DNA from: Acidobacteriota bacterium
Lineage (GTDB): Bacteria; Acidobacteriota; Vicinamibacteria; Vicinamibacterales; UBA2999
Reading direction: 5' to 3'
DNA length: 64,000 nucleotides
Assembly: GCA_031376505.1 (NCBI GenBank)
Contig: JANMDX010000256.1
Location: 8,682 to 72,681 of the forward strand
The position numbers and the translations under genes are program-made. Each line of letters opens with the position of its first letter. Position 1 is the first letter of the stretch. Below the pieces are notes generated by a model. That model was given only the letters and a program-made list of their open reading frames with translations, searched no databases and was not told where the DNA came from. Positions 7,294 through 54,022 of this stretch are shown here, one piece after another.

Positions 7294-7315
7294 CCGGGCC
7301 TCCCCAGAGGTCCGG
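7294..7315 (+). terminator. Possible stem-loop after sucB (no U-tract)
   Basis: CCGGGCCTC-CCCA-GAGGTCCGG forms a 9-bp stem including one G-U pair. It lies 20 nt after the sucB stop and 4 nt before the next start. No T-run follows, so its function is uncertain. Confidence 0.3.
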
Positions 7316-7318
7316 ACC

Positions 7319-7891
7319 GTGGAATCACCTAGCGCAACCATCCTGCTCCATGCGTGGCGGGGCGGCGAGGCAACCGCTCTCGATCGCCTGCTGCCGCTCG
7401 TCTACGACGAGCTTGCCCGCATTGCCCGCGGCGCGCTGCGGTCGGAGCGCCCGGACCACACGCTGCAGACTCGCGCACTCGTCCACGAAGCCTATTTGCG
7501 GCTCATCGACGCCGACGTCTCGTGGCAGGACAAGGCGCATTTCATGGCCGTGGCCGCACGTACGATGCGGCGCGTGCTGGTGGACCATGCGCGCAGCCGG
7601 CGCCGGCAGAAACGCGGCGGGGGCGCCGTGAAAGTGGAGCTCGAAGACGTGGCCGCAGTCATCGCGGCGCCCTCGGTGGACGTCCTCGACCTGCACGACG
7701 TGCTCGAGCGGCTGGCCGAGTTCGACGCACGCAAGGCCAGCATCGTCGAGCTGCACTTCTTCGGCGGGCTGAGCTACGACGAAACCGCGGAAGCCGTGGG
7801 CGTGTCGGCGGCGACCGTGGACCGCGAGCTGCGGATGGCCAAGGCGTGGCTCCGCCACGAGCTCACGATACGCGGCAGCGCCGTCGAGTAG
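7319..7891 (+). CDS. ECF-type RNA polymerase sigma factor (kinase-associated subgroup)
   Basis: Region 2 (HEAYLRL) and region 4 HTH (SYDETAEAVGVSAATVDRELRMAKAWL). The N-terminus LLHAWRGGEATALDRLLPLVYDEL is typical of ECF sigmas that are genomically paired with Ser/Thr kinases. Confidence 0.9.
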   Translation: MESPSATILLHAWRGGEATALDRLLPLVYDELARIARGALRSERPDHTLQTRALVHEAYLRLIDADVSWQDKAHFMAVAARTMRRVLVDHARSRRRQKRGGGAVKVELEDVAAVIAAPSVDVLDLHDVLERLAEFDARKASIVELHFFGGLSYDETAEAVGVSAATVDRELRMAKAWLRHELTIRGSAVE

Positions 7892-7924
7892 CCGCGACGC
7901 CTTCGGGCGGAAGGGAGTGGTCGT

Positions 7925-11146: not shown

Positions 11147-12217
11147 ATGTTGGCCGCAACTGCCGAAGCACAACTGATTGGGGATAGCCCCGCCGTCGCC
11201 GATCTCCGCACGGACATCGAGCGCACGGCACGGTCCGACGCCAAGGTGCTCATCACCGGGGAGAGCGGCGTGGGCAAGGAGCTGGTCGCACGGTCCGTAC
11301 ACGCCCACAGCTCGCGGGCGTCGAAGCCGTTTGTGGCGGTCAACTGCGCGGGCCTGCCGGAGACACTGCTCGAATCGGAACTGTTCGGGCACGTCAAGGG
11401 CAGCTTCACGGGCGCCTACCGTGACAAGCAAGGCAAGCTTGAAATGGCCGACGGCGGCACGCTCTTTCTCGATGAAGTCGGCGAGATGACCCTGCGCATG
11501 CAGGGCCTGCTGCTGCGTTTCCTCGAAACCGGCGAGTTGCAGAAGGTCGGCGCCGACCGGGTGCGCGCTACCGTCAGCATCCGCGTCATCGCCGCGACCA
11601 ATCGCAACCTGCGCGAGCTCATCGCGCAGCAGGCGTTCCGCGAAGACTTGTTCTACCGGCTCAACGTGATTCACCTGCTGGTGCCGCCCCTACGCGAGCG
11701 ACGCACCGACATTCCCGACCTCGTGCAGCGCTTTCTGCTGCGCAGCAGCGCGACTGGCCACTACGCGATGCGGTCGGTATCGCCAGAGGCCATGGACGCT
11801 CTGTGCAAGTACTCCTGGCCCGGCAACGTGCGCGAACTGCAGAACCTCGTCGAGCGGCTCGTCGTGACCTGCCAGCGCGAGATCGCGCTGCCCGACGACC
11901 TCCCGCCGGAGATCCGGCTGCTGCCCTTCGGCGCTTATCGGCCGCGGCGCGAACGCCGGCGCACGGTGTCCGACGAGCTGTACCAGAAGCTCGTCGACAC
12001 CGGCGAGTCGTTCTGGACGCTCGTCTATCCGCTCTACATGCAGCGTGAGATCACCAGAGGCCATCTGCGCGACCTCGTGCGGAAGGGCCTTCAGGAGGCC
12101 CGCGGCAACTATCGGATCGTCGTGCGCATCTTCAATATGCCGACGGGCGACTACAAACGGTTCCTCAACTTCCTGCGCACTCACGAGTGCCAGGTCTCGT
12201 TCAAGGAGTTCCGATGA
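11147..12217 (+). CDS. Sigma-54-dependent transcriptional activator without receiver/sensor domain (paralog 1)
   Basis: The AAA+ domain starts about 10 residues from the N-terminus: Walker A GESGVGKE, Walker [10 protein letters not shown], sigma-54 contact loop [26 protein letters not shown]-terminal HTH-like tail [25 protein letters not shown]. Confidence 0.9.
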   Translation: MLAATAEAQLIGDSPAVADLRTDIERTARSDAKVLITGESGVGKELVARSVHAHSSRASKPFVAVNCAGLPETLLESELFGHVKGSFTGAYRDKQGKLEMADGGTLFLDEVGEMTLRMQGLLLRFLETGELQKVGADRVRATVSIRVIAATNRNLRELIAQQAFREDLFYRLNVIHLLVPPLRERRTDIPDLVQRFLLRSSATGHYAMRSVSPEAMDALCKYSWPGNVRELQNLVERLVVTCQREIALPDDLPPEIRLLPFGAYRPRRERRRTVSDELYQKLVDTGESFWTLVYPLYMQREITRGHLRDLVRKGLQEARGNYRIVVRIFNMPTGDYKRFLNFLRTHECQVSFKEFR

Positions 12218-37535: not shown

Positions 37536-39818
37536 CTACGGCAAGGCCGCCAGTTGCGCCACGGCGTCGGCCGCGCCAGGGAACTTGCGGTCGAGTGCCA
37601 ACGCCGCCTTGAGCGATGCCTTGGCGCGAGCTGGCTCGTTGTTCTTTGACAGCGCCAGCCCGAGCCGGTAGTGGTACTCGGGATTGTCTGGGGCGAACTT
37701 CACGGCGTCTTCGAAGGCAGCGACCGAGAAGCCGAAGAGGTTGCGCCGGTAGTAGATGAGCCCGAGCGTGTCGCTCACCTCTGGCGATTCCGGCGACCCC
37801 ACCTTCGCCGTCTGCGCGAGTTGCAGCGCCACGTCGAGGTTCTCGCCGTCTTCCACTTTCATCCACGCCAGGTTGTTGGCCGCGACCACGGCAGACGCAT
37901 CGACCCGGAGCACGGCTTCGTAGGCCTTCTTTGCCTCGTCGCGCCGGTTGGCCATGTGGTGCAGCACGGCCACGACGGTCTTGGGCCCGACTGCGGTCGG
38001 CTGCAGGGCGGCCAGCCGCTGGAACTCTCGCAGCGCGTCCTCGAGGCGCCGATCGGCCACGTAGAGCTGCCCGAGCATCGAGTACGCCTCGAGCAGCGCC
38101 GGGTCGGCCTCGATGGCGCGCTTCAACAATGCCTCGGCGGTCTTGAAGTCACGGGTCTCGCCGTAGGCGCGCGCGGCCAGCACGAGCGACTTCGCGTCGG
38201 TGGGCGCTTTTTCGAGTGCGGTGTTCGCCGCCGCGAGCGCGCCCGCCACATTGCCGGAGGCGAGGCGGCTCGCCACCAGACCTCCGAGGGCTTCGTAAGA
38301 CGACGGCTGGGACACGAGGGCGGCGGCAAAGCGCTGCTCCGCCGCTTTCGGGTCGCGCCGCACGAGGCGAATCTGCCCCTCGAGCAGCTGTACGCGGGGC
38401 TCGTTGGGCAACTGCGTGGCGACCGGTCGCAGTTCGTTGGCGGCGTTGTCGGCCTGACCGGCGCCCACGTACGCGCGCACGAGTGCCAGCCGCGCTTCCA
38501 GGTGATTGGGCGCGTTGCGCACAGCCTGTTGCGCAACATCGATGGCTTTTTCGTACTGGCGCTCGGCAAGGTGGATCCGCGACAACTCGACCTGCGCCGG
38601 CACGTAGTTGGGTTCGAGGCGCAACACCTCGAGCAGCGAGGCCCGCGCTTCGCCGGCGCGCCGCCGCTGCAGCAGCGCCTGCGCCAGCCAGAAGTGGCCG
38701 GCTTCGTACTTGCTGTCAACAGCGACCGATTGCTGCAGGTCGGTCAGCGCCTCGTCGATCTTGCCGGCATCGAGCCGGAAGCGGCCCCGAAGCGCGAGGG
38801 CCTTGGCCGAGCGCGGCTGGGCCTTCAACAGCTCGTCAAGGTGGGCGTGCGCGGCAGGCTGGCGGCCTGCCATGTAGTCGATGGTGGCAAGCCGCAACTT
38901 CGCGTCGGCGAACTGGCGGCGGTCGCCTGACATCTTCTGGAGCCGCTCGACAGCTTCCGTCTCGCGGTTGGTCGCGAGCAACACTTCCGTGAGCAGGAAG
39001 CCGGCAGTGGCATCGCCCAGATCGTCGGCGAGCGAACGCAGATGGGGTTCAGCCTTCGACGCCTGATTCAGATTGACGTACAGCGATGCCAGCGCCCGCA
39101 GCGCCAGCGCGTTCTTTGCGTCGAGCGCCAGCGCTGACGCAAAGGCCTTTTCCGCGCCGGCCATGTCGCCAGACTGGAGCCGGTAGCTGCCAAGCGCCAG
39201 GTGCGCCTCGGGCGAGGTCGGGTCGACGGCGATTGCCTGGGCGTAGGCGGCCTCGGCCTCGGGCAGGCGGCCGCGCACACTCTGAATCGCCGCAAGCGTA
39301 GCGTGCGTGAGCCCGCGGTTCGGATCGAACTCGATCGCCCTCTTCAGTGACTCGGCCGCCGCCTCGTAGTCCTTCATGCCGGCCAGCGCATTGCCGAGCA
39401 GCACGTGCGCGGCAGCGTTCTTGGGCTCTCGTTCGATGACCTTCCGAGCCCGGGCCCGGGCGTCTTCGTAACGGGTCGCAAGCAGAAGATACTGGCCGGC
39501 CATCAGCTGCACCTTCGGTTCGTCGGGCAGGAGGTCGGCAGCGCGCACGTACTCGGGATACGCGGCTTCAGGGTTTCTGGAGTTCGAATACGCCTCGCCA
39601 AGCTGGAAACGCGCGCGGCCAAACGCCGGATCGATCTGAATGGCGGAGCGATACTCGATGATCGCCTCGGGGTACTGGCGTTGGGCGGCATATGCGTCGC
39701 CGCGTGTGAGGTGCTGCTGCTTCTCTGTGGCCGGATCACTCGAACAGGCCGCCGAGTACGCCACGAGTGCGGCGATCGCCACGAAGCGTGGCGCGCAAGA
39801 CAGACTGCGGGAAGACAT
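37536..39818 (-). CDS. prsT: PEP-CTERM system TPR-repeat lipoprotein
   Basis: Lipoprotein signal (FVAIAALVAYSAAC). The whole protein is TPR repeats. It sits directly downstream of EpsI and the exosortase. Start at ATG 39818. Confidence 0.85.
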   Translation of the reverse strand: MSSRSLSCAPRFVAIAALVAYSAACSSDPATEKQQHLTRGDAYAAQRQYPEAIIEYRSAIQIDPAFGRARFQLGEAYSNSRNPEAAYPEYVRAADLLPDEPKVQLMAGQYLLLATRYEDARARARKVIEREPKNAAAHVLLGNALAGMKDYEAAAESLKRAIEFDPNRGLTHATLAAIQSVRGRLPEAEAAYAQAIAVDPTSPEAHLALGSYRLQSGDMAGAEKAFASALALDAKNALALRALASLYVNLNQASKAEPHLRSLADDLGDATAGFLLTEVLLATNRETEAVERLQKMSGDRRQFADAKLRLATIDYMAGRQPAAHAHLDELLKAQPRSAKALALRGRFRLDAGKIDEALTDLQQSVAVDSKYEAGHFWLAQALLQRRRAGEARASLLEVLRLEPNYVPAQVELSRIHLAERQYEKAIDVAQQAVRNAPNHLEARLALVRAYVGAGQADNAANELRPVATQLPNEPRVQLLEGQIRLVRRDPKAAEQRFAAALVSQPSSYEALGGLVASRLASGNVAGALAAANTALEKAPTDAKSLVLAARAYGETRDFKTAEALLKRAIEADPALLEAYSMLGQLYVADRRLEDALREFQRLAALQPTAVGPKTVVAVLHHMANRRDEAKKAYEAVLRVDASAVVAANNLAWMKVEDGENLDVALQLAQTAKVGSPESPEVSDTLGLIYYRRNLFGFSVAAFEDAVKFAPDNPEYHYRLGLALSKNNEPARAKASLKAALALDRKFPGAADAVAQLAALP

Positions 39819-39831
39819 GGCGGGTGGACTC

Positions 39832-40473
39832 CTATTCGGGAACGAACCGCGACAGCAACGGAAAGATATCGGCGGCAAGAGCTTCGGCACGGCGGCTCGC
39901 CGCGCTGGCGTCTTCGCCTCGGGCCACAGGGCTCAGCACGCGCACAAGCGCGCCGTCGGTGCGGTTGCGCTGGGCGGCATCCCACACGAGGTAGGCCTTG
40001 CTCCAGTACTCGCTCGCGACGGTGCGGCCGCGCCCTTGGTACCAATACAGCGCCACTTGCCGGTCTTCGCCCTTCTGGATCACATAACGATTCACCTCGA
40101 CCGCACCCGAAGAGCCGGCGGCAATCGTGGTGCGGCCCGCTTGCACCGGCACCCAGCCCGCGCCCGGCAGACAGTTCATCGGAGAGTGGATGGTGTCGCC
40201 CTGCCGCTGGCTGCGGTAGTACCCGACAAACAGGCCGACCTGCGCCCCGGGAGACGCGTACGCACGCAACAGATAGTCATCCACGCCGAGCACGCGCATC
40301 GTGTCGAAGTCGAGAGGAGCGGCGTCGGTGCCCGTCCAGCGGCCGATCGCCATTGGAAAATCCGCCAACGCGTCGCGAGGCGCGGTGGCATCGGCCCGTT
40401 CTGATGCAGCAAGCGCGGCCGCGGCCGCACTGAGCGTCAGGAAGACCACGAAGAGTCGGGTGGTTAACGTCAT
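39832..40473 (-). CDS. epsI: Exosortase-associated EpsI family protein
   Basis: Signal/anchor, then DFPMAIGRWTG...DDYLLRAY....VGLFVGYYRSQRQGDTIHSPMNCLPGAGW, the hallmark EpsI core. Confidence 0.85.
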   Translation of the reverse strand: MTLTTRLFVVFLTLSAAAAALAASERADATAPRDALADFPMAIGRWTGTDAAPLDFDTMRVLGVDDYLLRAYASPGAQVGLFVGYYRSQRQGDTIHSPMNCLPGAGWVPVQAGRTTIAAGSSGAVEVNRYVIQKGEDRQVALYWYQGRGRTVASEYWSKAYLVWDAAQRNRTDGALVRVLSPVARGEDASAASRRAEALAADIFPLLSRFVPE

Positions 40474-40477
40474 GCGG

Positions 40478-41371
40478 TCACACCGACGCGCTACTGGCGG
40501 GTACGCCGGAAGGCAGCACGGGGTCTGGCGTGATGCGATTCACAAGTTCGCGCAGCGCGAAGAGCAGGGCAAGGGCCGCTACGAACACGAGCCAGCCCGA
40601 GACCCCATGAAGAAATCCTTCAGCCACGTCGGCGCCGTAGCGATGGGCCGCGATCCCTGTGCCCGCGACGCGCAGGCCGTTGGTCAGCACGGCAATCGGC
40701 ACGGTCGAGACCGCGAGCAGGCAGCGCACCCAAAGCCGCGAGTCCATGAAGTAGGCATACACGACACTCAGCGTGAGCAGCGACACGAGCGAGCGGATGC
40801 CGCTGCACGCCTCGGCCACTTCGAGAGTGGTGTTGGCCAGGATCATCACGTTGCCTTCTCGTAGCACCGGCACGCCGAACGCCTCGAGGCCGGCCTGACC
40901 GACCTGTGAGGCCAGCAGCTGCAGCGGCAGCGCGACCTGGTTGAAGAGCAATGCCGGCAAGGGAATCATCAGCAGGAGGAAGGCCAGCGGAAACGCGAGC
41001 AGGCGCAGATGCGCCCATCCAAAAGCGAACAGCACCACACCCACAAGCACGCCCACCATCGCTACGCGCGTGAGGAACAGCTCGGCGCCAAGCGTGCCCG
41101 CCCCAAGCAGCAGCAGGCTGCCGACGACCACGGCGAAGCCAAGCGCACTGGGTCTCAACGCCGCCGCGGTAAGCGCCGCGCGGCGCTCCCATGCCAGGAA
41201 CAGCGCGACCGGCACGACCAGAAAGCCGTGGGAGTAGTTGTAGTCGGTGGACCAGTCGGCAACCAGATTGCGCGCGACGTCGAAGAACACGGCCGCAAAG
41301 GCAACGCCCGCCAGCACCGCCATGACGGCTGCGCGAGAGGGCGGCCCGGTGCGCAATGGGAGAATCGTCAC
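40478..41371 (-). CDS. Exosortase (EpsH/XrtA-like)
   Basis: DWSTDYNYSHGFLVVPVALFLAW, catalytic-Cys motif EACSGIRSL, NGLRV and HGVSGW motifs, 8 TM helices. The start is uncertain: GTG 41371 is chosen, with alternatives ATG 41323 and TTG 41449 (the latter would overlap the upstream hairpin tail). Confidence 0.9.
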   Translation of the reverse strand: MTILPLRTGPPSRAAVMAVLAGVAFAAVFFDVARNLVADWSTDYNYSHGFLVVPVALFLAWERRAALTAAALRPSALGFAVVVGSLLLLGAGTLGAELFLTRVAMVGVLVGVVLFAFGWAHLRLLAFPLAFLLLMIPLPALLFNQVALPLQLLASQVGQAGLEAFGVPVLREGNVMILANTTLEVAEACSGIRSLVSLLTLSVVYAYFMDSRLWVRCLLAVSTVPIAVLTNGLRVAGTGIAAHRYGADVAEGFLHGVSGWLVFVAALALLFALRELVNRITPDPVLPSGVPASSASV

Positions 41372-41440
41372 TCTCGAGGAAGTATCGGTCGGAACGAGGC
41401 GATTTCGTAGCGATGAATGGCGGCTCGCGGACGGCCGCGG

Positions 41441-41474
41441 AAATGACAACGGCGAGGCGCTGACGCGCCCCGCC
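41441..41474 (-). terminator. Stem-loop (possible attenuator/terminator) between the PEP-CTERM gene and the exosortase
   Basis: The minus-strand RNA forms GGCGGGGCGC-GUCA-GCGCCUCGCC, a 10-bp stem with one G-U pair, followed by GUUGUCAUUU. Confidence 0.4.
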
Positions 41475-41508
41475 GTGCGGAATCAACTGAAGTGGGAGCC
41501 GCCTGCAG

Positions 41509-42219
41509 CTAGGCGGTCTGAGCCGCGGCCCGACGGCGACGGCGACGAGCCGCCGCGGCGCCGGCCAGGCCAGTCGCGAGCAACACCATGCTGGCTGGTT
41601 CCGGCACGACGGTGGGCGCCGTGTTCACGAACGACTCGCTATTGCCTTCGCCGCCAATCGACTGCACGTGTGTGCCGATGCGCAGGTCGCCGGTCGACAG
41701 GCTGGTCAGCAGGCTGGCGAACGTGGAGCCCTGGTTGAGCGTGAAGATCAGCCTCAGCCACTCACCCGGGTTGACGCCGTTTGGCGATACCGGTGGCCGG
41801 GCGCCGACGCCGTCGGTGGCCCGGAACTGGATGCCGTTTCCGCCCGGCAGGTTCCGGTTACCGGCGAGCTCTCTGAAGCTCACGCCGCTTGACCCGTTCA
41901 TGCTGCTCAGCGCGATCAGCGTCGGATTGGGTTGGTCGAAATATATCTGGGTAATCGAGGACGCGCCCGGGCCCGTGTTGCTGAACAGGAACTCCACCGA
42001 GCCATTTCCCAGGTCGGTCAGTGCGGCACTGAGCTGCGACTGCCCGATGGCGCAGCTGGACGCGGCGTTGTTGGTCACGCACGAGAATCCGAGCGTGGCA
42101 GCCTCGGTCCGGGCCGTTCCGAGCGCAAACACCGTGGCAACCGCGGCGGCCGACAACGCAATCCGGGAAACTGACATTCGCATCACCAAGGCGCTCATCC
42201 TTTTCTCTACGGTAGCCAC
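41509..42219 (-). CDS. PEP-CTERM sorting-domain protein (putative exosortase substrate)
   Basis: C-terminus VVPEPASMVLLATGLAGAAAARRRRRRAAAQTA = PEP motif + TM helix + Arg cluster. N-terminal signal (…RIALSAAAVATVFALGTARTEA). The start is ambiguous: GTG 42219, or ATG 42198/42183/42177. Confidence 0.9.
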   Translation of the reverse strand: MATVEKRMSALVMRMSVSRIALSAAAVATVFALGTARTEAATLGFSCVTNNAASSCAIGQSQLSAALTDLGNGSVEFLFSNTGPGASSITQIYFDQPNPTLIALSSMNGSSGVSFRELAGNRNLPGGNGIQFRATDGVGARPPVSPNGVNPGEWLRLIFTLNQGSTFASLLTSLSTGDLRIGTHVQSIGGEGNSESFVNTAPTVVPEPASMVLLATGLAGAAAARRRRRRAAAQTA

Positions 42220-42274
42220 ACTTCACAGAGGAAGATCCGCCTGCGGTGCGGTGTCCGTTGACGCATATTGAACA

Positions 42275-42289
42275 GCAATAACGCTGCCA
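42275..42289 (-). promoter_or_regulatory. Candidate sigma-54 (-24/-12) promoter for the PEP-CTERM gene/exosortase operon
   Basis: The minus strand reads TGGCAGCGTTATTGC (TGGCA-N6-TTGC, canonical spacing). It lies 56 nt upstream of the first possible start codon. Confidence 0.65.
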
Positions 42290-42469
42290 ACTGTCCACGA
42301 CCGTGTACCTACGCGCCGTATTGAGGGTTTCCAGGCGATGGGTTCAAGGGGAGGGCCAGATGCAAGTCATGGTCGCGCATTTTGGGAAAAATAATCGTGC
42401 CCTGCGCAGACTAGTAAGGCTCGGCTGCCGCGGTTGGGCGCTCGGGCGCTTGACACCTCATGCCAGGTG

Positions 42470-42483
42470 CACGCAGCTGCGTG
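42470..42483. promoter_or_regulatory. 14-bp perfect palindrome CACGCAGCTGCGTG in the divergent control region
   Basis: Perfect dyad, about 180 bp upstream of the sigma-54 motif at 42275-42289 and about 130 bp upstream of the activator start at 42615. Confidence 0.3.
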
Positions 42484-42614
42484 GTTCAGGTCTTCCGTCC
42501 AGACTTTGTTCTGCTCTTTCCTGACAGATAGTCGCTCGATTCTTGTTCTTGTCCGCAAACTGCTGATATTCTGACGTGGTAGTGGTCCGTTCAGACTACG
42601 GGTCGACCAAATCA

Positions 42615-43775
42615 ATGCAGCCAGTCGACGCTCCCCGAGACATACCGGCGCCCCAGCCTCGCCAGCAGGTCCTGATTGGACGGAGCCAGGCTCTGAAGGT
42701 CGTACATCAGGAGATCGAGTACGCCGCGCGGTCCGACGCGAAGGTGCTTGTCACGGGGGCCAGTGGCGTGGGCAAGGAAGTGGTCGCGCACCTCATCCAC
42801 ACCCGCAGCCGGCGGCGCCACGCGCCGATGCTTACGATCAACTGTGCGGCCATGCCTGACTCGCTGCTCGAGTCCGAGCTCTTCGGACACGCCCGGGGTA
42901 GCTTCACCGACGCGTATCGCGACAAGCGCGGGCTCTTTGAAGCCGCCAATGGCGGCACGGTGTTCCTCGACGAAGTCGGCGAGATGTCACTCCGCATGCA
43001 GGCGTTGCTGCTCAGATTTCTCGAAACCGGGGAGATTCAGCGGGTGGGCGACGAGCGCAATCGCGCCAACGTCAACGTCCGCGTCGTGGCCGCGACGAAT
43101 CGGCGTCTGCCCGAACGCATCCAGAGCGGCGACTTCCGCGAAGACCTCTACTATCGGCTCAATGTGATTCACATCACGATTCCGCCGCTGCGCGAACGTC
43201 GCGACGACGTGGCGCCGCTGCTCGAGCACTTCCTGCGGCAATTCGCGGTCGAACACGGCGTGCCTCTGCCGGCAACCGCCGACGACGCGGTGACCGCGCT
43301 CGAAGCGTACGACTGGCCCGGCAACGTTCGAGAGCTCCGCAACATCGCCGAGCGTCTGACCTGCCGCTGCCCCGGCGGCGTGATTCGCATCGAAGATCTG
43401 CCGGCGGAAGTACGGGCTGTGGCTGTGCCTCCCGACGCGCCGGGGACGAAGCCAGGCGCGACCGCTCCGGCGCAAGCCTTGCTCGATCGGATCCTGCTCA
43501 GGGGTGAATCGTTCTGGGATGTGGCGTACGAACCGTTCATGGCCCGCGACTTGACGCGTGAGGACGTGCGGCACCTGGTGCGCGTGGGGCTCGAACAAAC
43601 CCGCGGGAACTACAAGGCGCTGGTGCAGCTGTTCAACATGGAACCGCAGGACTACAAGCGGTTCCTGAATTTCCTGCGCAAATACGGCTGCCACATGCCG
43701 TTCCAGCGATTCCGGATGGCGCCGGGTCGCGGCGACAGCGGCGCAGCCGGTTCGAGCGGTAAAGAGCCCGTCTGA
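42615..43775 (+). CDS. Sigma-54-dependent transcriptional activator without receiver/sensor domain (paralog 2)
   Basis: About 25 residues precede the AAA+ core: Walker A GASGVGKE, Walker [10 protein letters not shown], contact loop [26 protein letters not shown]-terminal tail [25 protein letters not shown] matches paralog 1. ATG 42615 is preferred over GTG 42576. Confidence 0.9.
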
Positions 43776-43787
43776 GCCGGCGCGCTC
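43772..43787. terminator. Small hairpin formed by two convergent stop codons
   Basis: CTGAGC-CGGC-GCTCAG: a 6-bp perfect stem that includes TGA of 42615..43775 and the reverse TGA of 43786..44445. No U-tract. Confidence 0.25.
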
Positions 43788-44445
43788 AGGCCGCCGACAC
43801 CGCGTCGACGTACGACTGCCAGCGCGGGTTGTCGGGCATCGCAAACGCGACCCCGCACGCCACGGGTTGCAATGGGTCGCCGCGATGAGCCCACACGCGC
43901 TGTCCGCGCAAGTCGATACCGAGCTCTGGGATGACGACGTGCACCGTGTCGCCCGGGGGCGACATGCCGAAGACCTCGAGACAGACGCCGCCGTAGCTCA
44001 CGTCGAGCAGCCGGCCCGGCAACCCTTCCACCACCGCTGCGACGTCGGAGGCCAGACGCTTCCGTGGCCACCGGCGCTTGGGCCGCGGGACCGCAAGGAG
44101 TTCTGCGATGGTCAACTCGAGATCGCGGGGCGTTACCGGCGAGAGAAGATACCGCGCACCGAGTCCGCCCGCTTCGACTTCAAGGACGTGATCCTGGCCA
44201 CCGATGACGATGGCCACGGTGCGAGGAAACTCGACGCGCGCCACCGCCACGAGATGCAAGCCGTTGTACGGGCCAAGGCGCACGTCGGTGACGAGTACTT
44301 CGGGGGGCGAGCCCTCTTCCAGAGTGCGTCGGGCGTCCGGGAAACTCGAACACGCACGCGCTGCGAAACCAGCACGCCTCAGGGCGGTCACGCGTCCCGA
44401 CAGAACGTGAGGATCAGCACTGACGACGAGGATGTCTGATGTCAT
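43786..44445 (-). CDS. Degenerate receiver (REC) domain + PilZ domain protein (copy 1)
   Basis: CheY-like fold (ILVVSADP...VLVTDVRLGPYNGLHLV...AIVIGGQD...YLLSPV). C-terminal PilZ motifs RRWPRKR (RxxxR) and DVSYGG (DxSxxG). Start at ATG 44445. Confidence 0.8.
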   Translation of the reverse strand: MTSDILVVSADPHVLSGRVTALRRAGFAARACSSFPDARRTLEEGSPPEVLVTDVRLGPYNGLHLVAVARVEFPRTVAIVIGGQDHVLEVEAGGLGARYLLSPVTPRDLELTIAELLAVPRPKRRWPRKRLASDVAAVVEGLPGRLLDVSYGGVCLEVFGMSPPGDTVHVVIPELGIDLRGQRVWAHRGDPLQPVACGVAFAMPDNPRWQSYVDAVSAA

Positions 44446-44471
44446 GCTCAAGGTTTGCCGAGTATGACATT

Positions 44472-44486
44472 GCAAACCATCGGCCA
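44472..44486 (-). promoter_or_regulatory. Candidate sigma-54 (-24/-12) promoter for REC-PilZ copy 1
   Basis: The minus strand reads TGGCCGATGGTTTGC (then AA) with canonical GG/GC spacing, 27 nt upstream of ATG 44445. The 7-bp inverted repeat GGTTTGC/GCAAACC (44452-44458 / 44472-44478) overlaps the -12 element. Confidence 0.5.
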
Positions 44487-44601
44487 AGCGTAAATCTGGC
44501 GTCTGCGCTCAATTCGCATGCCTGGCGCTGGGCCTGACCAGACTTCTGGCCCTTGTTCCAGGGACAAATCGAGGATGCCCCGGAACGAGTCCCTCGGCCA
44601 G

Positions 44602-45306
44602 TTAGGCAGGCAGCCCAGGCCCGCCCGAGAGCGGCAGGATGCCTGGGAGCAGTTCCAGACCGTCGACAAACGAGCGCCATCGAGCATCGACTGCGCTGTC
44701 GCGACGCAGAGCCAACCCGCAGGCAATGGGCTGGGCCCTACCGGGGCGTTTGGCCCACACCCGCTCGACCGGCACGGCAAGGCCCGTCGAGGGCACGGTC
44801 AGCTCGAGCGCGTCGGTCGGGATGTCGGCGCCAAAGAACTCGATGCCCGCGCCGCCGTAGCTCACGTCTACGATGCGTGCTTCGATACCAGATACAAACG
44901 TAGCGAGCTCGCGAACGGGGCGCTTGCGTGGCCAGCGGCGCTGGGGACGAGGGGCGGCCACGAGTTCGGCGAGCACGGCCGCAAGCCGGTCGGCCGCCAC
45001 CGGCTCGACCAGGTACCTGGCCCCAAGGTGATACGACTCGGCCTGCAGGGCGGAGTCTCTGGGCCCGACGACGAGACAGGTCGTCCTCGGGTGCTCCACC
45101 TGCGCAATGGCGACGAGATGGAGTCCGTTGTAGTCGCCAAGATGCACGTCGGTGACGATGGCGTGCGGCTCGAGCTCCGACAGCACCTGGCGCGCGTCGA
45201 GAAAGGTCTCGACCGGCATCACGGAGAATCCCGCATCCCGGAGGGCCTCGAGTCTTCCAGCTGAAGTGGAATCGTTGGCGCCTACGACGAGCACCGGCAT
45301 TTGCAT
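44602..45306 (-). CDS. Degenerate receiver (REC) domain + PilZ domain protein (copy 2)
   Basis: Paralog of 43786..44445 (VLVVGAND...AIVTDVHLGDYNGLHLV...YLVEPV; RRWPRKR; DVSYGG). The start is ambiguous: ATG 45306 or 45300, or GTG 45330. Confidence 0.8.
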   Translation of the reverse strand: MQMPVLVVGANDSTSAGRLEALRDAGFSVMPVETFLDARQVLSELEPHAIVTDVHLGDYNGLHLVAIAQVEHPRTTCLVVGPRDSALQAESYHLGARYLVEPVAADRLAAVLAELVAAPRPQRRWPRKRPVRELATFVSGIEARIVDVSYGGAGIEFFGADIPTDALELTVPSTGLAVPVERVWAKRPGRAQPIACGLALRRDSAVDARWRSFVDGLELLPGILPLSGGPGLPA

Positions 45307-45530
45307 AACGTCAGGTCCTTGAGTTGCCACGCTCCAAAACGTGCTTCAAAGATCGGGCCAAGACGAATTGCGCAAATTAAGGCCAAGACTTGATGGATTG
45401 CGGTGCATCCTGACGTGGGGCGTCAACATAATCGTAAAGGATCAAACCCCAAGCGTCGGTGAATTGACGGGTGCCCATGGCGCATGAATCGGGTGTTGCG
45501 CGCCGGTTGTCGACTGGTTCAGGATAGGCC

Positions 45531-46364
<834 letters not shown>

Positions 46365-48732: not shown

Positions 48733-48747
48733 TGGCAGCGGCTTTGC
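48733..48747 (+). promoter_or_regulatory. Candidate sigma-54 (-24/-12) promoter immediately upstream of the S8 protease gene
   Basis: TGGCAGCGGCTTTGC (TGGCA-N6-TTGC). Only 13 nt separate the -12 GC from ATG 48761, implying a leaderless or near-leaderless mRNA if the motif is functional. Confidence 0.45.
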
Positions 48748-48760
48748 GAAGACGGATGGC

Positions 48761-50833
48761 ATGAACTCTCCGTCATCCGAACGCCGAACCGTCTGGACCC
48801 AGGCATCTATTCGGCGGCTGTCGCTCTGCGCGCTGCTGGTGGCTGTGGGCCTCGGTGCTTTCTCGACCGATGCATCCGCGCAGCGCCGCTTCAAGCCCAC
48901 TCGCTCCGACGAGGTCAAGTTCGACCGACTCCTGCAAGACGTCGCGGGCGACGACGACACCGTCCCGGTCATCGTTGAATTCAACGACGAGTCGGGCGCG
49001 GACCGACTCGTCGCGGCAAGCGGCGGCAACCAGGGCAAGCGCCTCGGCGGCATGCGCGGCCGCACGACCCGCATGTCAAAACGCATGCTGCGCCGGCTCG
49101 CGGCGAGCGGCGCGGTGAAGCGCGTGCACTACGACCGTCCGGTCGAGGCGCTGCTGGGCCGCACGGCTGCGACCATCGGCGCCCTCACGGTACAGCAGCG
49201 CATGGGCTACAGGGGCGCTGGTATCGGCGTGGCCGTCATTGACTCGGGCGTCACGCCCAACCACGACGATCTCCGGTATGCCGGCAGCACCACCCAGCGC
49301 GTCTCGAAGTTCGTGGATTTCGTGGGCACGGGCACGTCGGCCTACGACGACTGGGGTCATGGCACACACGTGGCGGGAATCATTGCCGGCAACGGCTATG
49401 ACAGCTACGGCGTGCGCACGGGCGTGGCGCCAGACGCCACGATCGTATCGCTGAAGGCGCTCGACGGCTACGGCCGGGGCCGCGTCAGCATGATCATCGC
49501 GGCGCTCGACTGGGCCGTGGCAAACCGCGCGGCCTACAACATCCGCGTGATCAACATGTCGCTCGGCGCGGGGGTGTTCGAGTCGTACAAGACCGACCCG
49601 CTCACGCTGGCCGCCAAGCGCGCCGTCGACGCGGGCATCGTGGTCGTGGCCGCGGCCGGCAACATCGGCAGGGACGCCAACGGCAACGCGCAGTATGGCG
49701 CCATCACGGCGCCGGGCAACGCGCCGTGGGTGCTCACGGTGGGTGCCGCCGACGGCAAGGGCAACCTGTTTCGCGGCGACGACGAGGTCGCCCCCTACAG
49801 CTCGCGCGGGCCCACCGCGCACGACTTCGCCGCCAAACCCGATCTGGTCGCGCCCGGCACGGGCGTGGCGTCGCTTGCGAGCCCAGGCAGCAAGATGTAC
49901 GTGGAGAAGCCACAGTTCCTGCTGGCCGGCAGCCGGTCCACGCAGTTCAAGCCGTACCTGACGTTGAGCGGCACGAGCATGGCCGCGCCGGCCGTGGCCG
50001 GCACGGTGGCCCTGATGCTGCAGGCCAATCCCAATCTGACACCGAACCTGGTGAAGGCGCTGCTGCAATACACGGCCCAAGCCAAGCAGGGCGTCGACCT
50101 GCTCACGCAGGGCGCCGGCTTCTTGAACGCGCGCGGCGCGGTCACGCTGGCTGAGTATTTTCGCACCGGCCGGCCGGGCAGCCGATATCCCCATTCGGGT
50201 TCGTGGAGCCGCCACATCGTATGGGGCAACCACGTCATCACGGGCGGCGTGATTGCACCCTTCGCCAATGCCTGGGCCACCAACATCGTGTGGGGCGAGA
50301 GCCAGACGTCGGCCGGCCAGAACATCGTGTGGGGTGAAGCCTGCGGCGGACCGTGCGCAAACGTCACCTGGGGCTCCAACATCGTGTGGGGCGAGAACAT
50401 CGTCTGGGGTGAAGACATCGTCTGGGGCCTCGACGACAACATCGTGTGGGGCGAGAACATCGCCTGGGGCATGGACGACAACATCGTCTGGGGTGAAAAC
50501 GTGGTGTGGGGAATGGACTGCGGCGCCGCCAATTGCGCCAACGTGGTCTGGGGACAGCACACCGGCGCGTCGGGCTTGAACGTCGTCTGGGGCATGGCCG
50601 AGGGCCTCAACGTGGTCTGGGGCAACAACATCGTCTGGGGCGAGAACATCGTGTGGGGTGAAAGCACCGACCCCGACGCCTCGTGGGGCAGTTCCGGCAC
50701 CGACGCAGCCGTCTACGGCGACGAATCAGCCGAGATTCTCGCCTTCGACCCCTTGGCCTGGGACGCCGCGAACAATCCCGACCTGCCGGATGCTCTGACG
50801 ACGGGCACGACCCCGAACGGAGGCAGCTTCTAA
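48761..50833 (+). CDS. Secreted S8 (subtilisin-family) serine peptidase with C-terminal VWG-repeat domain
   Basis: Signal peptide; I9-like propeptide (VPVIVEFND...); catalytic triad contexts VAVIDSGV (Asp), HGTHVAG (His), SGTSMAAP (Ser). Confidence 0.9.
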   Translation: MNSPSSERRTVWTQASIRRLSLCALLVAVGLGAFSTDASAQRRFKPTRSDEVKFDRLLQDVAGDDDTVPVIVEFNDESGADRLVAASGGNQGKRLGGMRGRTTRMSKRMLRRLAASGAVKRVHYDRPVEALLGRTAATIGALTVQQRMGYRGAGIGVAVIDSGVTPNHDDLRYAGSTTQRVSKFVDFVGTGTSAYDDWGHGTHVAGIIAGNGYDSYGVRTGVAPDATIVSLKALDGYGRGRVSMIIAALDWAVANRAAYNIRVINMSLGAGVFESYKTDPLTLAAKRAVDAGIVVVAAAGNIGRDANGNAQYGAITAPGNAPWVLTVGAADGKGNLFRGDDEVAPYSSRGPTAHDFAAKPDLVAPGTGVASLASPGSKMYVEKPQFLLAGSRSTQFKPYLTLSGTSMAAPAVAGTVALMLQANPNLTPNLVKALLQYTAQAKQGVDLLTQGAGFLNARGAVTLAEYFRTGRPGSRYPHSGSWSRHIVWGNHVITGGVIAPFANAWATNIVWGESQTSAGQNIVWGEACGGPCANVTWGSNIVWGENIVWGEDIVWGLDDNIVWGENIAWGMDDNIVWGENVVWGMDCGAANCANVVWGQHTGASGLNVVWGMAEGLNVVWGNNIVWGENIVWGESTDPDASWGSSGTDAAVYGDESAEILAFDPLAWDAANNPDLPDALTTGTTPNGGSF
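50213..50689 (+). repeat. About 16 irregularly spaced coding repeats with core N-[IV]-[VTA]-W-G
   Basis: HIVWG, NIVWGE, NIVWGE, NVTWG, NIVWGENIVWGEDIVWG, NIVWGENIAWG, NIVWGENVVWG, NVVWG, NVVWG, NVVWGNNIVWGENIVWGE. Confidence 0.85.
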
Positions 50834-51495
50834 TGGAGAAGATGCCGTACTCCGAAGCACTGCACGCGTCGCTGCCGGCCATGGAGTTCCCGGTCGCCCA
50901 CGACGTCGCCTCGACCGATTGGCGTCAACAGTTGCCAGTGCTGGCAGCCGGCGCGGTCACGCTGCGGGCGATGCGCATCGAAGACGCCGAGTCGCTCTGC
51001 CAACTGCTCACGACGGCGGAAGTGGCCCGCTTCGTCTCGCCGCCTCCCTCGACGGTTGAGGGGTTCCGCCGCTTCATCGCATGGGCGGGTCGCGAACAGG
51101 CCGCCGGCAAGTATGCGTGCTTCGCGGTGGTGCCAGCGGGCACTGACACGGCCGTGGGCCTCTTCCAGGTGCGCCAGCTCGACTCGGAGTTCCAGAATGC
51201 CGAGTGGGGTTTCGTGATCGGCTCGCCCTACTGGGGCACCGGCCTGTTTGCCGAGGGCGCACAACTGGTCGTCGACTTCGCGGTCGACACGATCGGCGTG
51301 AACCGTCTGGAAGCCCGGGCGGCCGTGCCAAACGGGCGAGGTAACGGCGCCCTGGCCAAAGTGGGCGCCGTGCGCGAGGCTCTGCTGCGCCAGTCGTTCG
51401 AGCGCAATGGACAGCGCTACGACCAGCACCTCTGGTCGATTCTGGCCTCGGACTGGCGCGCGGCGCGTCAGGTCACCTCCGCCTCCGTGCACTAG
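50833..51495 (+). CDS. GNAT-family N-acetyltransferase (RimJ/RimL-like)
   Basis: VTLRAMRIEDAESLCQLL..., FAVVP....VGLFQVR..., IGSPYWGTGLF, NRLEARAAV.N.RGNGALAKVGA. The ATG at 50833 overlaps the protease stop (TAATG). Confidence 0.8.
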   Translation: MEKMPYSEALHASLPAMEFPVAHDVASTDWRQQLPVLAAGAVTLRAMRIEDAESLCQLLTTAEVARFVSPPPSTVEGFRRFIAWAGREQAAGKYACFAVVPAGTDTAVGLFQVRQLDSEFQNAEWGFVIGSPYWGTGLFAEGAQLVVDFAVDTIGVNRLEARAAVPNGRGNGALAKVGAVREALLRQSFERNGQRYDQHLWSILASDWRAARQVTSASVH

Positions 51496-51523
51496 CCGTC
51501 GGTCGTCAATCAACGCCACGGAT

Positions 51524-51557
51524 CGGCCGTGCTGCATGGGCAGCACGGCCGTTTCTG
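51524..51557 (+). terminator. Rho-independent terminator after the GNAT gene
   Basis: Perfect 12-bp stem CGGCCGTGCTGC-ATGG-GCAGCACGGCCG followed by TTTCTG, 29 nt after the stop. Confidence 0.65.
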
Positions 51558-51652
51558 CGTACGAGGCGGTGCCCTCCGCGTCATCGTTTGTAACGGTGAC
51601 AGGCCCAGAGACAACTCGTTACGCGTCCGCGGTTGGTGACGGTCTCCTCGGT

Positions 51653-54022
51653 GTGGTCCAATGGAGGCTTCTCGTGGCCGTCCCATCCCGCGTTCTCCGT
51701 GTCTCTCTCGTGTGGTCCGCGCTGGCAAGCGTCGGCATGATGAGCGCGCAGATGGCATCGGCGCAAACGGTGGCCGAGAAAGCCAGCCCCGAGACCGCTC
51801 AGACCGAGATTCTGGTCCGCGACGGGACAGGCAAAGCCACCATCCGCGCCACGAGAATCGCCGAGAAAGACTTCACACTCGACGGGCGGCTCGACGAGGC
51901 GATCTATTCCTCGGTGGCTCCGCTCACCGGCTTTGTCCAGCAGGAACCCGACGAAGGCGCGCCCGCCACCGAGAAGACCGAAGCATGGATCTTCTTCGAC
52001 GACAAGAACGTCTACGTCGCCGCCCGCCTGTATGAATCCGAGCCTGGCCGGCGCGTGCAGAGCGAGATGCGGCGTGACTCATTCAACATCAGCAGCAACG
52101 ACCATGTGGCCGTGGTGTTCGACACGTTCAACGACGCGCGCAATGGCTTCGGCTTCGCGGCCAACCGCCTTGGCGGGATGTTCGACTGGGCGACCACCAA
52201 CGAGCAGCCCAGTCCCAACTGGAATGGGTTGTGGTCGTCGAAGGCCGAGGACTTCGACGGCGGCTGGACGATCGAGATGCGCGTGCCCTTCCGCTCGATC
52301 CGCTTCAAGGAAGGCAGCAACACGTGGGGCGTGAACATGCGCCGCATGGTCCGCTTCAAGAACGAAACGTCGTACCTGAACGCGGTGCCCCGGTCATGGG
52401 GACGCCGTGGCCTCAACAAACTCTCGAACGCCGCGTCCCTCGTAGGGCTGGCGACGCCGAAGCGTTCGATCAACCTTGACGTGAAGCCGTACGCGCTTGG
52501 CTCCGTGCTGACCAACCGCGCCGCAACGCCGGCATTCAACGACAAGGGCGACGCCAACTTCGGCGTGGACGCCAAGTGGGGCGTGACGCAGCAGTTCGTG
52601 GCCGACTTCACGTACAACACCGACTTCGCCCAGGTGGAGGACGACGACGCGCAGGTGAACCTCACGCGCTTCTCGCTGTTTTTTCCTGAGAAGCGCGAGT
52701 TCTTTCTCGAGGGCCAGGATGCGTTTGCGTTCGGCGGCGTCGGGGGCGGGGGTGGGGGCGGTGGTGGCGGGGGCGGTGGCGGGGGCGGCGGGGGTGGTGG
52801 CGGCGGCGGGGGTGGCGGCGGCGGGGGCGGAGCCAACAACCTGACGCCGATCTTGTTCTATAGCCGGCGGATCGGCCTCGGCGGCGGCACCGTCGTGCCG
52901 ATCATCGGCGGAGCCCGTGTGCTCGGCCGGAGCGGTGGCTGGCAGGTGGGCGCGTTGTCGATGGAAACCAACGACGTGCCGTCGGCCGGCGTGCCGCTGA
53001 CGAACTTTTCTGTGCTGCGCGTAAACCGCGACGTACTGCGCCGCAGCCGCATCGGCATGGTCGCCACGAGCCGGAACCCGTCGGCGGGGAACTCCGCCAA
53101 CAACTACTCAGCGGGCGTCGATGCCCAGTTCAACGTCAGAAGCAACGTCTTCATCAACACCTACTGGGCCCGCACGCAGACCAGCGGCAAGACCGGCAGT
53201 GAGCAGAGCTACCGCGGCCGCTTCGACTGGAACGGGGACCGGTACGGTGCCAACATGGAACACCTCTTCGTGGGCGAGGGGTTCAATCCCGAAGTGGGCT
53301 TCATGCGCCGGTCAGCGTTTCGCCGTTCCTTCGGCCAGATGCGGTTCAGCCCGCGCCCGAAGAACTTGCCTGGCGTGCGCAAGCTGTCCTATCAGGCCAG
53401 CGCCGACTACATCACGGCGGCGTCCAGCGGCCGAGTGGAGTCGGAGGAATACCAAGGCACCTTCAACGCCGAACTGAACAGCGGCGACTTCATCAGCGCG
53501 GAAGTGACCCAGGCCTACGAGGGGCTGTTGGCGCCATTCACGGTCGCCCCTGGCGTCGTCGTGCCGATCGGCGGATACCGCTTCACCCAGAACAAGGTGT
53601 CGTATTTCATGGGCGGCCAGCGGCGCATCAGTGGCGGGATCACCGCGCTCCGCGGCGGCTTCTACAACGGCACGCTCACGGAGATGACGTGGCGCGGACG
53701 CGTGGAGTTCACGTCGCAGATCTATGCCGAGCCGACACTTTCGTGGAACCGCGTGGAAGGCCCGTACGGCAACGGCAACAGCAATCTGGCGGGCACGCGA
53801 CTCACCTACACGGTGACACCCCGCATGTTCGCGGCCGCACTGGTGCAGTACCAGTCGCGCACCCAGTCGATGAGCACCAACCTGCGCTTCCGGTGGGAAT
53901 ATCAGCCGGGCAGCGAATTGTTCGTCGTCTACAGCGACGGACGCACGACGGCCAACCCCGGATACCCGGATCTCGAGAACCGCTCGGTCGTCGTGAAGCT
54001 GACGAAGCTGTTCCGCAGGTAG
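51653..54022 (+). CDS. CBM9-like + DUF5916-like outer-membrane/secreted protein
   Basis: DGRLDEAIYSSVAPLTGFVQQEPDEGAPATEKTEAWIFFDDKNVYVAARL...DHVAVVFDTFND.RNGFGF matches the CBM9-like N-domain of this family. The C-terminal half is beta-rich. Start set at GTG 51653, after the terminator (signal-like RLLVAVPSRVLRVSLVWSALASVGMMSAQMASA). The track start 51407 is rejected. Confidence 0.75.
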   Translation: MVQWRLLVAVPSRVLRVSLVWSALASVGMMSAQMASAQTVAEKASPETAQTEILVRDGTGKATIRATRIAEKDFTLDGRLDEAIYSSVAPLTGFVQQEPDEGAPATEKTEAWIFFDDKNVYVAARLYESEPGRRVQSEMRRDSFNISSNDHVAVVFDTFNDARNGFGFAANRLGGMFDWATTNEQPSPNWNGLWSSKAEDFDGGWTIEMRVPFRSIRFKEGSNTWGVNMRRMVRFKNETSYLNAVPRSWGRRGLNKLSNAASLVGLATPKRSINLDVKPYALGSVLTNRAATPAFNDKGDANFGVDAKWGVTQQFVADFTYNTDFAQVEDDDAQVNLTRFSLFFPEKREFFLEGQDAFAFGGVGGGGGGGGGGGGGGGGGGGGGGGGGGGGGGANNLTPILFYSRRIGLGGGTVVPIIGGARVLGRSGGWQVGALSMETNDVPSAGVPLTNFSVLRVNRDVLRRSRIGMVATSRNPSAGNSANNYSAGVDAQFNVRSNVFINTYWARTQTSGKTGSEQSYRGRFDWNGDRYGANMEHLFVGEGFNPEVGFMRRSAFRRSFGQMRFSPRPKNLPGVRKLSYQASADYITAASSGRVESEEYQGTFNAELNSGDFISAEVTQAYEGLLAPFTVAPGVVVPIGGYRFTQNKVSYFMGGQRRISGGITALRGGFYNGTLTEMTWRGRVEFTSQIYAEPTLSWNRVEGPYGNGNSNLAGTRLTYTVTPRMFAAALVQYQSRTQSMSTNLRFRWEYQPGSELFVVYSDGRTTANPGYPDLENRSVVVKLTKLFRR
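52742..52831 (+). repeat. 30 consecutive glycine codons (mixed GGC/GGG/GGT/GGA), G-run-rich DNA
   Basis: Read codon by codon in frame. Preceded by GGC GGC GTC and followed by GCC AAC AAC. Several G5 runs (GGGGGCGGGGGTGGGGGC...). Confidence 0.95.

Follow-up and report, generated by a model that had tools for sequence, protein, structure and literature searches.

Receiver-PilZ proteins as candidate trans-acting partners of receiver-less sigma-54 activators in Vicinamibacteria

Group 4 bacterial enhancer-binding proteins (bEBPs), such as PspF and HrpR/S, are controlled in trans through the binding of another protein (PMC7175178). Other regulators of the EBP type, namely FleQ, VpsR, FlrA and EpsI/Nla24, bind cyclic di-GMP (c-di-GMP) directly (PMC12564702, PMC6158489, PMC4877007). 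Here we analyzed a 64-kb window (the whole stretch of 64,000 nucleotides examined, from contig JANMDX010000256.1 of an Acidobacteriota genome), in which two adjacent genes, RP1 and RP2, each encode a degenerate response-regulator receiver followed by a PilZ domain. Next to them lies the gene of a sigma-54 activator without a sensor or receiver domain, EBP-B; a second such activator, EBP-A, is encoded at the far end of an exosortase and exopolysaccharide (EPS) island. The window has a G+C content of about 67%, and its closest relatives are metagenome-assembled genomes of Vicinamibacterales (Acidobacteriota). Judging from sequence and gene order, we lean slightly toward the view that RP1 and RP2 are c-di-GMP receptors and that members of their receiver subfamily act as regulatory domains of receiver-less sigma-54 activators, encoded apart from them.

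As in the PspF/PspA and HrpR-HrpS/HrpV systems, the activators of this window consist of AAA+ and DNA-binding parts only, and a separate small protein is their candidate regulator. RP1, like pspA, appears to be under sigma-54 control, and the two activators, like hrpR and hrpS, are paralogous and stand in tandem in many genomes. Unlike PspA and HrpV, to which they are unrelated, the RP proteins combine a receiver fold with a PilZ domain; the signal proposed for them is c-di-GMP, and their contact with the activators is a predicted one. The locus would share with FleQ, VpsR, FlrA and EpsI/Nla24 the coupling of c-di-GMP to an EBP-type regulator of exopolysaccharide or biofilm genes. In those proteins, however, c-di-GMP acts on the AAA+ domain or the degenerate N-terminal domain of the activator itself, whereas a separate PilZ adaptor is proposed here.

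PixA of Myxococcus xanthus resembles RP1 and RP2 in being a small protein with both PilZ and receiver domains, an orphan without an adjacent kinase, and it binds c-di-GMP in vitro (PMC8316039). In PixA, the PilZ domain is N-terminal and the receiver is canonical and genetically phospho-responsive, whereas in the RP proteins a degenerate receiver precedes the PilZ domain; PixA, moreover, functions in motility and polarity and has no linkage to a sigma-54 activator. PEP-CTERM systems are usually controlled by PrsK/PrsR. That system, like this window, has sigma-54-dependent PEP-CTERM genes adjoining genes of an exosortase, EpsI and PrsT (PMC1569441, PMC9850573). Unlike PrsR, EBP-A and EBP-B have no receiver, and the PrsR model (TIGR02915) matched them at 270.2 bits, against a cut-off of 502.6, and only at positions 139-384 of 445, which correspond to the AAA+ domain. 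No histidine kinase, PrsK-like or other, is encoded in the 64-kb window. The Cle proteins of Caulobacter are, like the RP proteins as proposed here, receiver-fold adaptors set by c-di-GMP rather than solely by phosphorylation; they bind it through a short arginine-rich C-terminal extension, not a PilZ barrel, and their target is the flagellar motor. The first-pass annotation, made from the letters of the window alone, was aware of no earlier account of such receiver-PilZ proteins beside a sigma-54 activator. Our literature searches, incomplete in coverage, agree with it: they turned up no description of a receiver-PilZ partner, or of any receiver in trans, for a sigma-54 activator.

Domains and active-site residues of RP1 and RP2

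RP1 (43786..44445, minus strand) encodes 219 amino acids (aa) from an ATG at 44445. The mechanically listed open reading frame (ORF), 43786-44487, begins at a TTG at 44487, but the orthologs are all 218-221 aa long and start with MTSDILVV, and a conserved sigma-54 promoter lies inside the TTG-extended frame; thus, the ATG is taken as the true start. RP2 (44602..45306, minus strand; listed as 44602-45330) encodes 234 aa from a probable ATG at 45306. The two proteins are 46% identical across 219 residues (E = 1e-60). That they are adjacent paralogs, each joining a CheY-like domain to a PilZ domain, had been read from the sequence in the first pass and is borne out by this identity and by a receiver fold and a PilZ barrel in each. 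We regard these domain identities as virtually certain.

In Pfam searches, the Response_reg family matched RP1 at E = 5.9e-06 (26.9 bits) and RP2 at E = 3.9e-06 (27.5 bits), both under the gathering cut-off of 30.2, and a match to this family (PF00072) was found in 24 of 24 homologs at E <= 0.01. The AlphaFold2 model of RP1 (pLDDT, 88.8) shows a full receiver fold in residues 1-118, with five strands and five helices in the expected order, followed by the sequence RRWPRKR in a low-confidence linker, a six-strand barrel and a C-terminal helix. In Foldseek comparisons, the N-terminal half of RP1 matched solved receivers with target-normalized template modeling (TM) scores of 0.85-0.9. The matches closest in sequence to the RP1 receiver included NtrC1 receivers, at 27-28% identity.

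Receiver residues were assigned by alignment to solved receivers and by the Pfam register. After strand 1, Ser-Ala (RP1) or Gly-Ala (RP2) stands in place of the acidic pair. Both proteins keep the phospho-acceptor Asp, located where strand 3 ends (TDVRLG and TDVHLG, respectively). The Thr/Ser position after strand 4 is occupied by Gly in both proteins, and this Gly is invariant in the family; the Lys position after strand 5 is Ser in RP1 and Glu in RP2. Receivers need the acidic pair, the Thr/Ser and the Lys for phosphorylation and switching. RP1 and RP2 are, by these assignments, pseudo-receivers fused to a PilZ domain. The first-pass annotation had reached the same view, and each of its residue calls (the kept Asp context, the lost acidic pocket, the replaced Lys, and Gly for Thr in RP1) held up against the solved receivers and the Pfam register; the Thr position of RP2, which it had left open, is now resolved as Gly. 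The alignment to the Response_reg model that it had called for verified the residues, with scores that stayed below the gathering cut-off.

The phospho-acceptor Asp and its context are invariant across the 24-sequence alignment, and this is the main argument for regarding RP1 and RP2 as phosphorylatable response regulators of an orphan histidine kinase, with the PilZ domain as a second input, as proposed for PixA. Canonical members of the family do exist, with PilZ (loci L057 and L059 of the genome collection) or without it (L083 and L084), and PixA both binds c-di-GMP and has a functional receiver (PMC8316039). However, both paralogs and their orthologs have other residues in place of the acidic pair, the Thr and the Lys, and in relatives the Asp itself gives way to Glu, Gly, Ala, Thr or Gln; among RP2 orthologs, it is Glu or Gly in L005 and L007. 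With no kinase gene in the window as well, true phospho-receivers seem very improbable.

The PilZ half is divergent in sequence. Pfam PilZ (PF07238) matched RP1 at E = 4e-4 and 21.1 bits, under the cut-off of 22.5, and did not match RP2 at E <= 0.1; a match was found in 10 of 24 homologs (E <= 0.01). Thus, the model alignment suggested in the first pass supports a PilZ domain in RP1, though below the cut-off, and not in RP2. When the PilZ half was compared with PDB chains by sequence alone, no match reached significance (Alg44, E = 0.4). Since Foldseek with the full-length RP1 model returned receiver matches only, the C-terminal domain was modeled separately. This model (pLDDT, 87) has a six-strand beta-barrel fold, and its best 39 PDB matches in Foldseek are almost all PilZ domains, with query-normalized TM scores of 0.43-0.70. 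They include BcsA, VCA0042, PP4397, YcgR, Alg44, MotI, MapZ, PlzA and MrkH, and the structures of BcsA, VCA0042, PP4397, YcgR, Alg44, MapZ and PlzA among them are complexes with c-di-GMP.

Both motifs by which PilZ domains bind c-di-GMP, RxxxR and (D/N)xSxxG, had been spotted in the first pass, and they are intact. The first is RRWPR(KR) in the N-terminal linker of RP1 and RP2, and R124, R125, W126, P127 and R128 are invariant among the 24 homologs. The second, DVSYGG, is invariant in the same alignment and present in nearly all of 118 family sequences. On these motifs and the fold, RP1 and RP2 are predicted with good confidence to bind c-di-GMP.

Gene linkage with receiver-less activators

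EBP-B (42576..43775, plus strand; probable start, ATG 42615) comprises an AAA+ domain, a lid and, at the C terminus, a helix-turn-helix-like region, and a 386-aa protein, P0121, is 100% identical to it. Its gene lies tail-to-tail with RP1, with the stop codons 10 bp apart. EBP-A (11147..12217, plus strand) is 52% identical to EBP-B. The Sigma54_activat matches of the two activators (E = 9e-67 and 6e-68) begin at residues 33 and 10, and their open frames leave no room for a receiver. Homologs of EBP-B are likewise all 360-410 aa long, none with a Response_reg match.

We tested the linkage in both directions. In the forward direction, the genome collection was scanned with the family alignment, yielding 79 loci, nearly all from Vicinamibacterales or Acidobacteriota, onto which the window proteins were mapped by tblastn. 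Each RP1 ortholog with sufficient flanking sequence (56-96% identity; L001-L027) has a convergent EBP-B ortholog immediately downstream. On the upstream side are RP2 and an FKBP gene, or sugar-nucleotide genes in the loci that have only one RP gene (L002, L003, L025). On the far side of EBP-B, some loci have the PEP-CTERM/exosortase/EpsI/PrsT set; in others EBP-A stands in tandem and the EPS island is located elsewhere. The latter arrangement, with EBP-A directly upstream of EBP-B, the EBP-A/EBP-B/RP1/RP2 module intact and the exosortase and EPS genes elsewhere, is found in L004, L010, L014-17, L024 and L027. Because the flanking genes change across loci in this way, the conserved unit is EBP-(A)-B with RP1(-RP2), not RP with exosortase. 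The first-pass annotation had tied the RP proteins to the exosortase island; the PEP-CTERM/exosortase set does adjoin EBP-B in some genomes, but the linkage follows the activator, and the exosortase lies elsewhere in several.

In the reverse direction, a search was made with EBP-B, and the neighbors of seven homologs (61-65% identity), selected solely for their long contigs, were inspected. A receiver with the signature RLGxxNGL[HQ]L lies within 1.6 kb of all seven. In four (L083, L084, L087 and the P0235 locus), it is a canonical single-domain receiver of 120-125 aa with the DDD, Asp, Thr and Lys residues all present. These receivers start at the activator stop codon or a few bases from it, with overlap in L084 and L087. 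Three of the four loci have a GGDEF or GAF-GGDEF gene upstream, and three have a convergent HD-GYP gene downstream; the order GGDEF (or GAF-GGDEF), receiver-less activator, canonical receiver and convergent HD-GYP occupies 4143-7895 in L083, 3691-8043 in L084 and 426-3421 in L087. The other three homologs (L085, L086, L088) have degenerate receiver-only neighbors in which the Asp is Glu or Gln, and in L088 a tandem pair of degenerate receivers is convergent to the activator, mirroring RP2-RP1. Further receiver-only pseudo-receivers stand beside receiver-less activators in L064, L066, L068, L076 and L081. PEP-CTERM and TPR genes also occur near the GGDEF/activator/receiver/HD-GYP clusters of L083, L084 and L087.

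No activator that directly adjoins an RP-family gene has a receiver of its own. Identity between the RP1 receiver and the activator-adjacent receivers is 30-45% (E = 1e-10 to 1e-25), as opposed to E-values of 1e-3 for an NtrC-like receiver of the same phylum and 3.3 for Escherichia coli CheY. There is therefore a distinct receiver subfamily that accompanies a single activator family, with the genes in operonic, convergent or divergent orientation. This is hard to explain by inherited synteny alone. The activator-linked subfamily is restricted to Vicinamibacteria.

The co-occurrence analysis proposed in the first pass thus gave a positive answer in both directions, and its suggestion that the RP proteins are the missing input partners of receiver-less activators gains from the two-way linkage, from the distinctness of the subfamily and from the GGDEF and HD-GYP genes in several clusters. 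It needs two amendments, the first of which concerns PilZ. Relatives beside EBP-B homologs may be receiver-only, some of them fully canonical; the constant companion of the activators is the receiver-like domain and not PilZ.

The RP family extends beyond these loci. A search of 1.84 billion representative proteins with a profile of the PilZ half gave no more than 466 clusters (E <= 1e-3). Most are 215-240 aa long and have their PilZ domain at about residues 120-220, thus showing the same receiver-PilZ architecture. One paralog group without an activator carries the motifs LLIADVRLGPFNGLQL, RRWER and DVSYGG. In about 20 loci it forms an operon of HD-GYP (HD_5), PilZ-DUF6982 and REC-PilZ genes, often with a convergent PEP-CTERM gene downstream; examples are L031, L032, L034, L037, L038, L042, L043, L048, L049, L051, L053, L056 and L074, at about 7300-10660. 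This operon ties the RP family to c-di-GMP signaling and indicates that not all its members work with an activator.

It also raises the question of whether the RP family regulates c-di-GMP turnover through HD-GYP or GGDEF partners, for example by product feedback on a phosphodiesterase, with the activator linkage being secondary. Conservation of the operon in about 20 loci and the HD-GYP genes convergent to the receiver in L083, L084 and L087 speak for this, as does the fact that RpfG-type HD-GYP proteins usually carry a receiver of their own. However, the 64-kb window has no GGDEF, EAL or HD-GYP gene, and none stands beside RP1/RP2 in L001-L027 or beside the receiver-only relatives of L076, L085, L086 and L088; the invariant neighbor is EBP-B. 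We consider a primary role in turnover quite improbable.

Sigma-54 promoters and surrounding genes

A sigma-54-type promoter with canonical -24/-12 spacing, TGGCCGATGGTTTGCA (44471..44486, minus strand), is located some 25 nt upstream of the start codon of RP1. TGG[CT]-N7-TTGC occurs upstream of RP1 in 28 of 28 orthologous loci, in the strict TGGC form in 24 of them, against a background rate of 0.66% per 130-nt window. An alignment of 19 loci shows TGGC and TTGC unchanged throughout and the spacer variable. About 55 nt upstream of the -24 element is a block, AAGTCTGG (44538..44545, minus strand), whose AGTCT-G is invariant in the same alignment. There are only two exact copies of AAGTCTGG in the window, both intergenic within the RP/EBP-B/PEP-CTERM cluster. 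The other copy (42499..42506, minus strand) lies between EBP-B and the PEP-CTERM gene, together with a second AGTCTG (42407-42412, minus strand), and an alignment of seven loci shows both to be conserved upstream of the sigma-54 promoter of the PEP-CTERM gene. Counts within the window show no significant enrichment of AAGTCTGG by themselves (29 sites match it with one mismatch or none, 28 being expected), and the weight of the block comes from its invariance across loci. We infer that AAGTCTGG is a candidate activator-binding site common to the RP1 and PEP-CTERM promoters. The arrangement AAGTCTGG-N9-GC was rejected as a second sigma-54 promoter of RP1, the GG-to-GC spacing being one base short.

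The PEP-CTERM gene has a sigma-54 promoter of its own, TGGCAGCGTTATTGCT (42274..42289, minus strand), conserved in every locus with a PEP-CTERM gene and in agreement with the published RpoN dependence of such genes (PMC1569441, PMC9850573). Upstream of RP2, the sigma-54-like element TGGCCCGATCTTTGA (45346..45360, minus strand) has a non-canonical -12 part, TTGA rather than TTGC. TGGC-N7-TTG[A/G/T] is found there at a fixed position in 21 of 23 loci, never with TTGC, against a background of 2.1%. Another sequence upstream of RP2, AAGTCTTG, resembles AAGTCTGG and was dropped, being conserved only among close relatives. No sigma-70-like promoter or intrinsic terminator was detected in 42150-45600. 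RP1 is very likely transcribed by the sigma-54 polymerase and co-regulated with the PEP-CTERM operon. The second amendment to the first-pass picture is that RP1, given its conserved promoter, would be a target of the system in addition to being a candidate input, so that feedback is implied.

The probable target operon (37536..42219, minus strand) is divergent from EBP-B, on the side away from RP1, and consists of genes for a PEP-CTERM protein (41509-42219), an XrtA-like exosortase (40478-41449), EpsI (39832-40473) and a PrsT-like TPR lipoprotein (37536-39890). Beyond this set, about 30 kb of EPS genes end at EBP-A, which heads an operon for EPS export and biosynthesis (Poly_export, Wzz, sugar transferase) at the far end of the exosortase island.

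These promoters would equally suit a role of RP1 and RP2 in the output. They could be c-di-GMP receptors expressed within the regulon that act post-translationally on the EPS, exosortase or envelope machinery, in the manner of the PilZ domains of BcsA and Alg44 or of YcgR-type adaptors, and their linkage to EBP-B would then reflect co-regulation. The RP1 promoter is conserved and has its upstream motif in common with the PEP-CTERM promoter, gating of polysaccharide synthases is common among PilZ proteins, with BcsA and Alg44 among the top Foldseek matches, and activator-less paralogs often adjoin a PEP-CTERM protein gene. Gating of a synthase, however, accounts for none of three features of the linkage: the module stays with the activators where exosortase and EPS genes are elsewhere (L004, L010, L014-17, L024, L027), PilZ-less receiver-only relatives hold the same position beside EBP-B homologs, and canonical relatives begin at the activator stop codon or a few bases from it. 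This weakens the idea, and we judge a purely output role unlikely.

Several further features of the region concern the activators and their possible regulon. Relative to GAFTGA, the L1 loop reads GSFTGA in EBP-A and GSFTDA in EBP-B; Phe and Thr are retained, and position 5 is Asp in EBP-B and all its orthologs (L001-L027, L064-L070, L081). EBP-B might activate on its own or might need a mixed ring with EBP-A, like HrpR/HrpS. No terminator-like hairpin was detected between the convergent stops of EBP-B and RP1 (43775-43786), and the two transcripts probably overlap at their 3' ends. In one clade (L001, L019, L020, L022, L023; e.g., L001 at 16750, minus strand), a sigma-54-type element, TGGCCC(T/C)(C/T)NTTTTGCT, precedes EBP-A, hinting that EBP-A regulates itself or that the two activators form a cascade. 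In the window, the region upstream of EBP-A showed no such canonical site. Directly upstream of EBP-A are genes for an extracytoplasmic function (ECF) sigma factor of the PF07638 type and then a Ser/Thr kinase with TPR repeats (7319-10804, plus strand). The same pair precedes EBP-A in a relative of 75% identity (L001, 17019-20517) and may form a further input layer to the same regulatory module.

A sigma-54-type element, TGGCAGCGGCTTTGCG (48733-48748, plus strand), lies just upstream of a subtilase (Peptidase_S8) ORF (48761-50833) and keeps its place in about 20 related loci; the gene probably starts downstream of 48761, and it may belong to the same sigma-54 regulon. The C-terminal end of the predicted subtilase contains many NIVWGE-type repeats. 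Further along, a DUF5916/CBM9-like protein of 871 aa (51407-54022, plus strand) contains an uninterrupted run of about 30 glycines. Between the FKBP gene and RP2 (45400-45480, minus strand), all related loci have a conserved TTTACGATTGTGTTGACGC and an inverted pair, GCGTCAA...GACGC / TTGACGC. These blocks look like the binding site of another regulator or a divergent FKBP promoter. The window contains no match to an Rfam family, c-di-GMP riboswitches included.

Proposed mechanism and implications

In the mechanism that we propose, the receiver-like domain would contact the AAA+ activator in trans, as PspA contacts PspF and HrpV contacts HrpS. The partner would be EBP-B and, probably, EBP-A. 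In relatives with a canonical receiver, the input would be phosphorylation; in the lineage of the window, after loss of the acidic pair, Thr and Lys and fusion to a PilZ domain, the input would be c-di-GMP. Vicinamibacteria would accordingly possess a split EBP class with its receiver in trans, one lineage of which exchanged phosphorylation for c-di-GMP, a proposition that we hold to be evenly balanced. A functional partnership of the RP proteins with the activators, taken by itself, seems fairly probable from the comparative evidence.

The activator would drive the sigma-54 promoters of both the PEP-CTERM/exosortase operon and RP1. Receiver-less AAA+ activators, such as PspF and truncated NtrC1 and DctD, are usually constitutively active, and c-di-GMP usually promotes matrix production. 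For these reasons, we favor a direction in which the activator is kept inhibited by RP until c-di-GMP releases it, so that high c-di-GMP would turn the surface polymer genes on; the inhibitory sign is a guess. Sigma-54 control of RP1 would then constitute negative feedback of the kind seen with pspA, which is itself PspF-dependent. With two RP proteins and two activators, there could be one-to-one pairing or mixed complexes, as with HrpR and HrpS.

Several observations weigh against a partnership with the activators or against c-di-GMP as its signal. The Pfam scores of the receiver and PilZ domains are both under the gathering thresholds, and the Asp is retained in most RP1 and RP2 sequences, leaving room for some phospho-chemistry. 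RP1 and EBP-B are convergent and hence not co-transcribed, and a sigma-54 promoter is equally expected if RP1 is merely a member of the regulon. Distant paralogs (28-42% identity, about 45 loci) have no activator within 10 kb; thus, the RP family also works in other contexts. Finally, all the evidence comes from one class of Acidobacteriota, and the counts are inflated by shared ancestry.

If RP1 and RP2 do act on the activators as proposed, they would provide the first example of a sigma-54 activator under the control of a PilZ adaptor, and thereby a new c-di-GMP route to sigma-54 transcription, as well as the first natural NtrC-type regulatory domain acting as a separate subunit. The series from canonical receiver to pseudo-receiver to pseudo-receiver with PilZ would show a second-messenger input replacing a two-component input. 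Canonical, degenerate and PilZ-fused receivers beside orthologous activators provide, in any event, a comparative series on receiver control of AAA+ activators. The findings, which come from comparative genomics within one bacterial class, should interest the two-component, sigma-54 and c-di-GMP fields. They suggest a switching route for the exosortase/PEP-CTERM surface systems of abundant and poorly studied soil Acidobacteriota that have no PrsK/PrsR.

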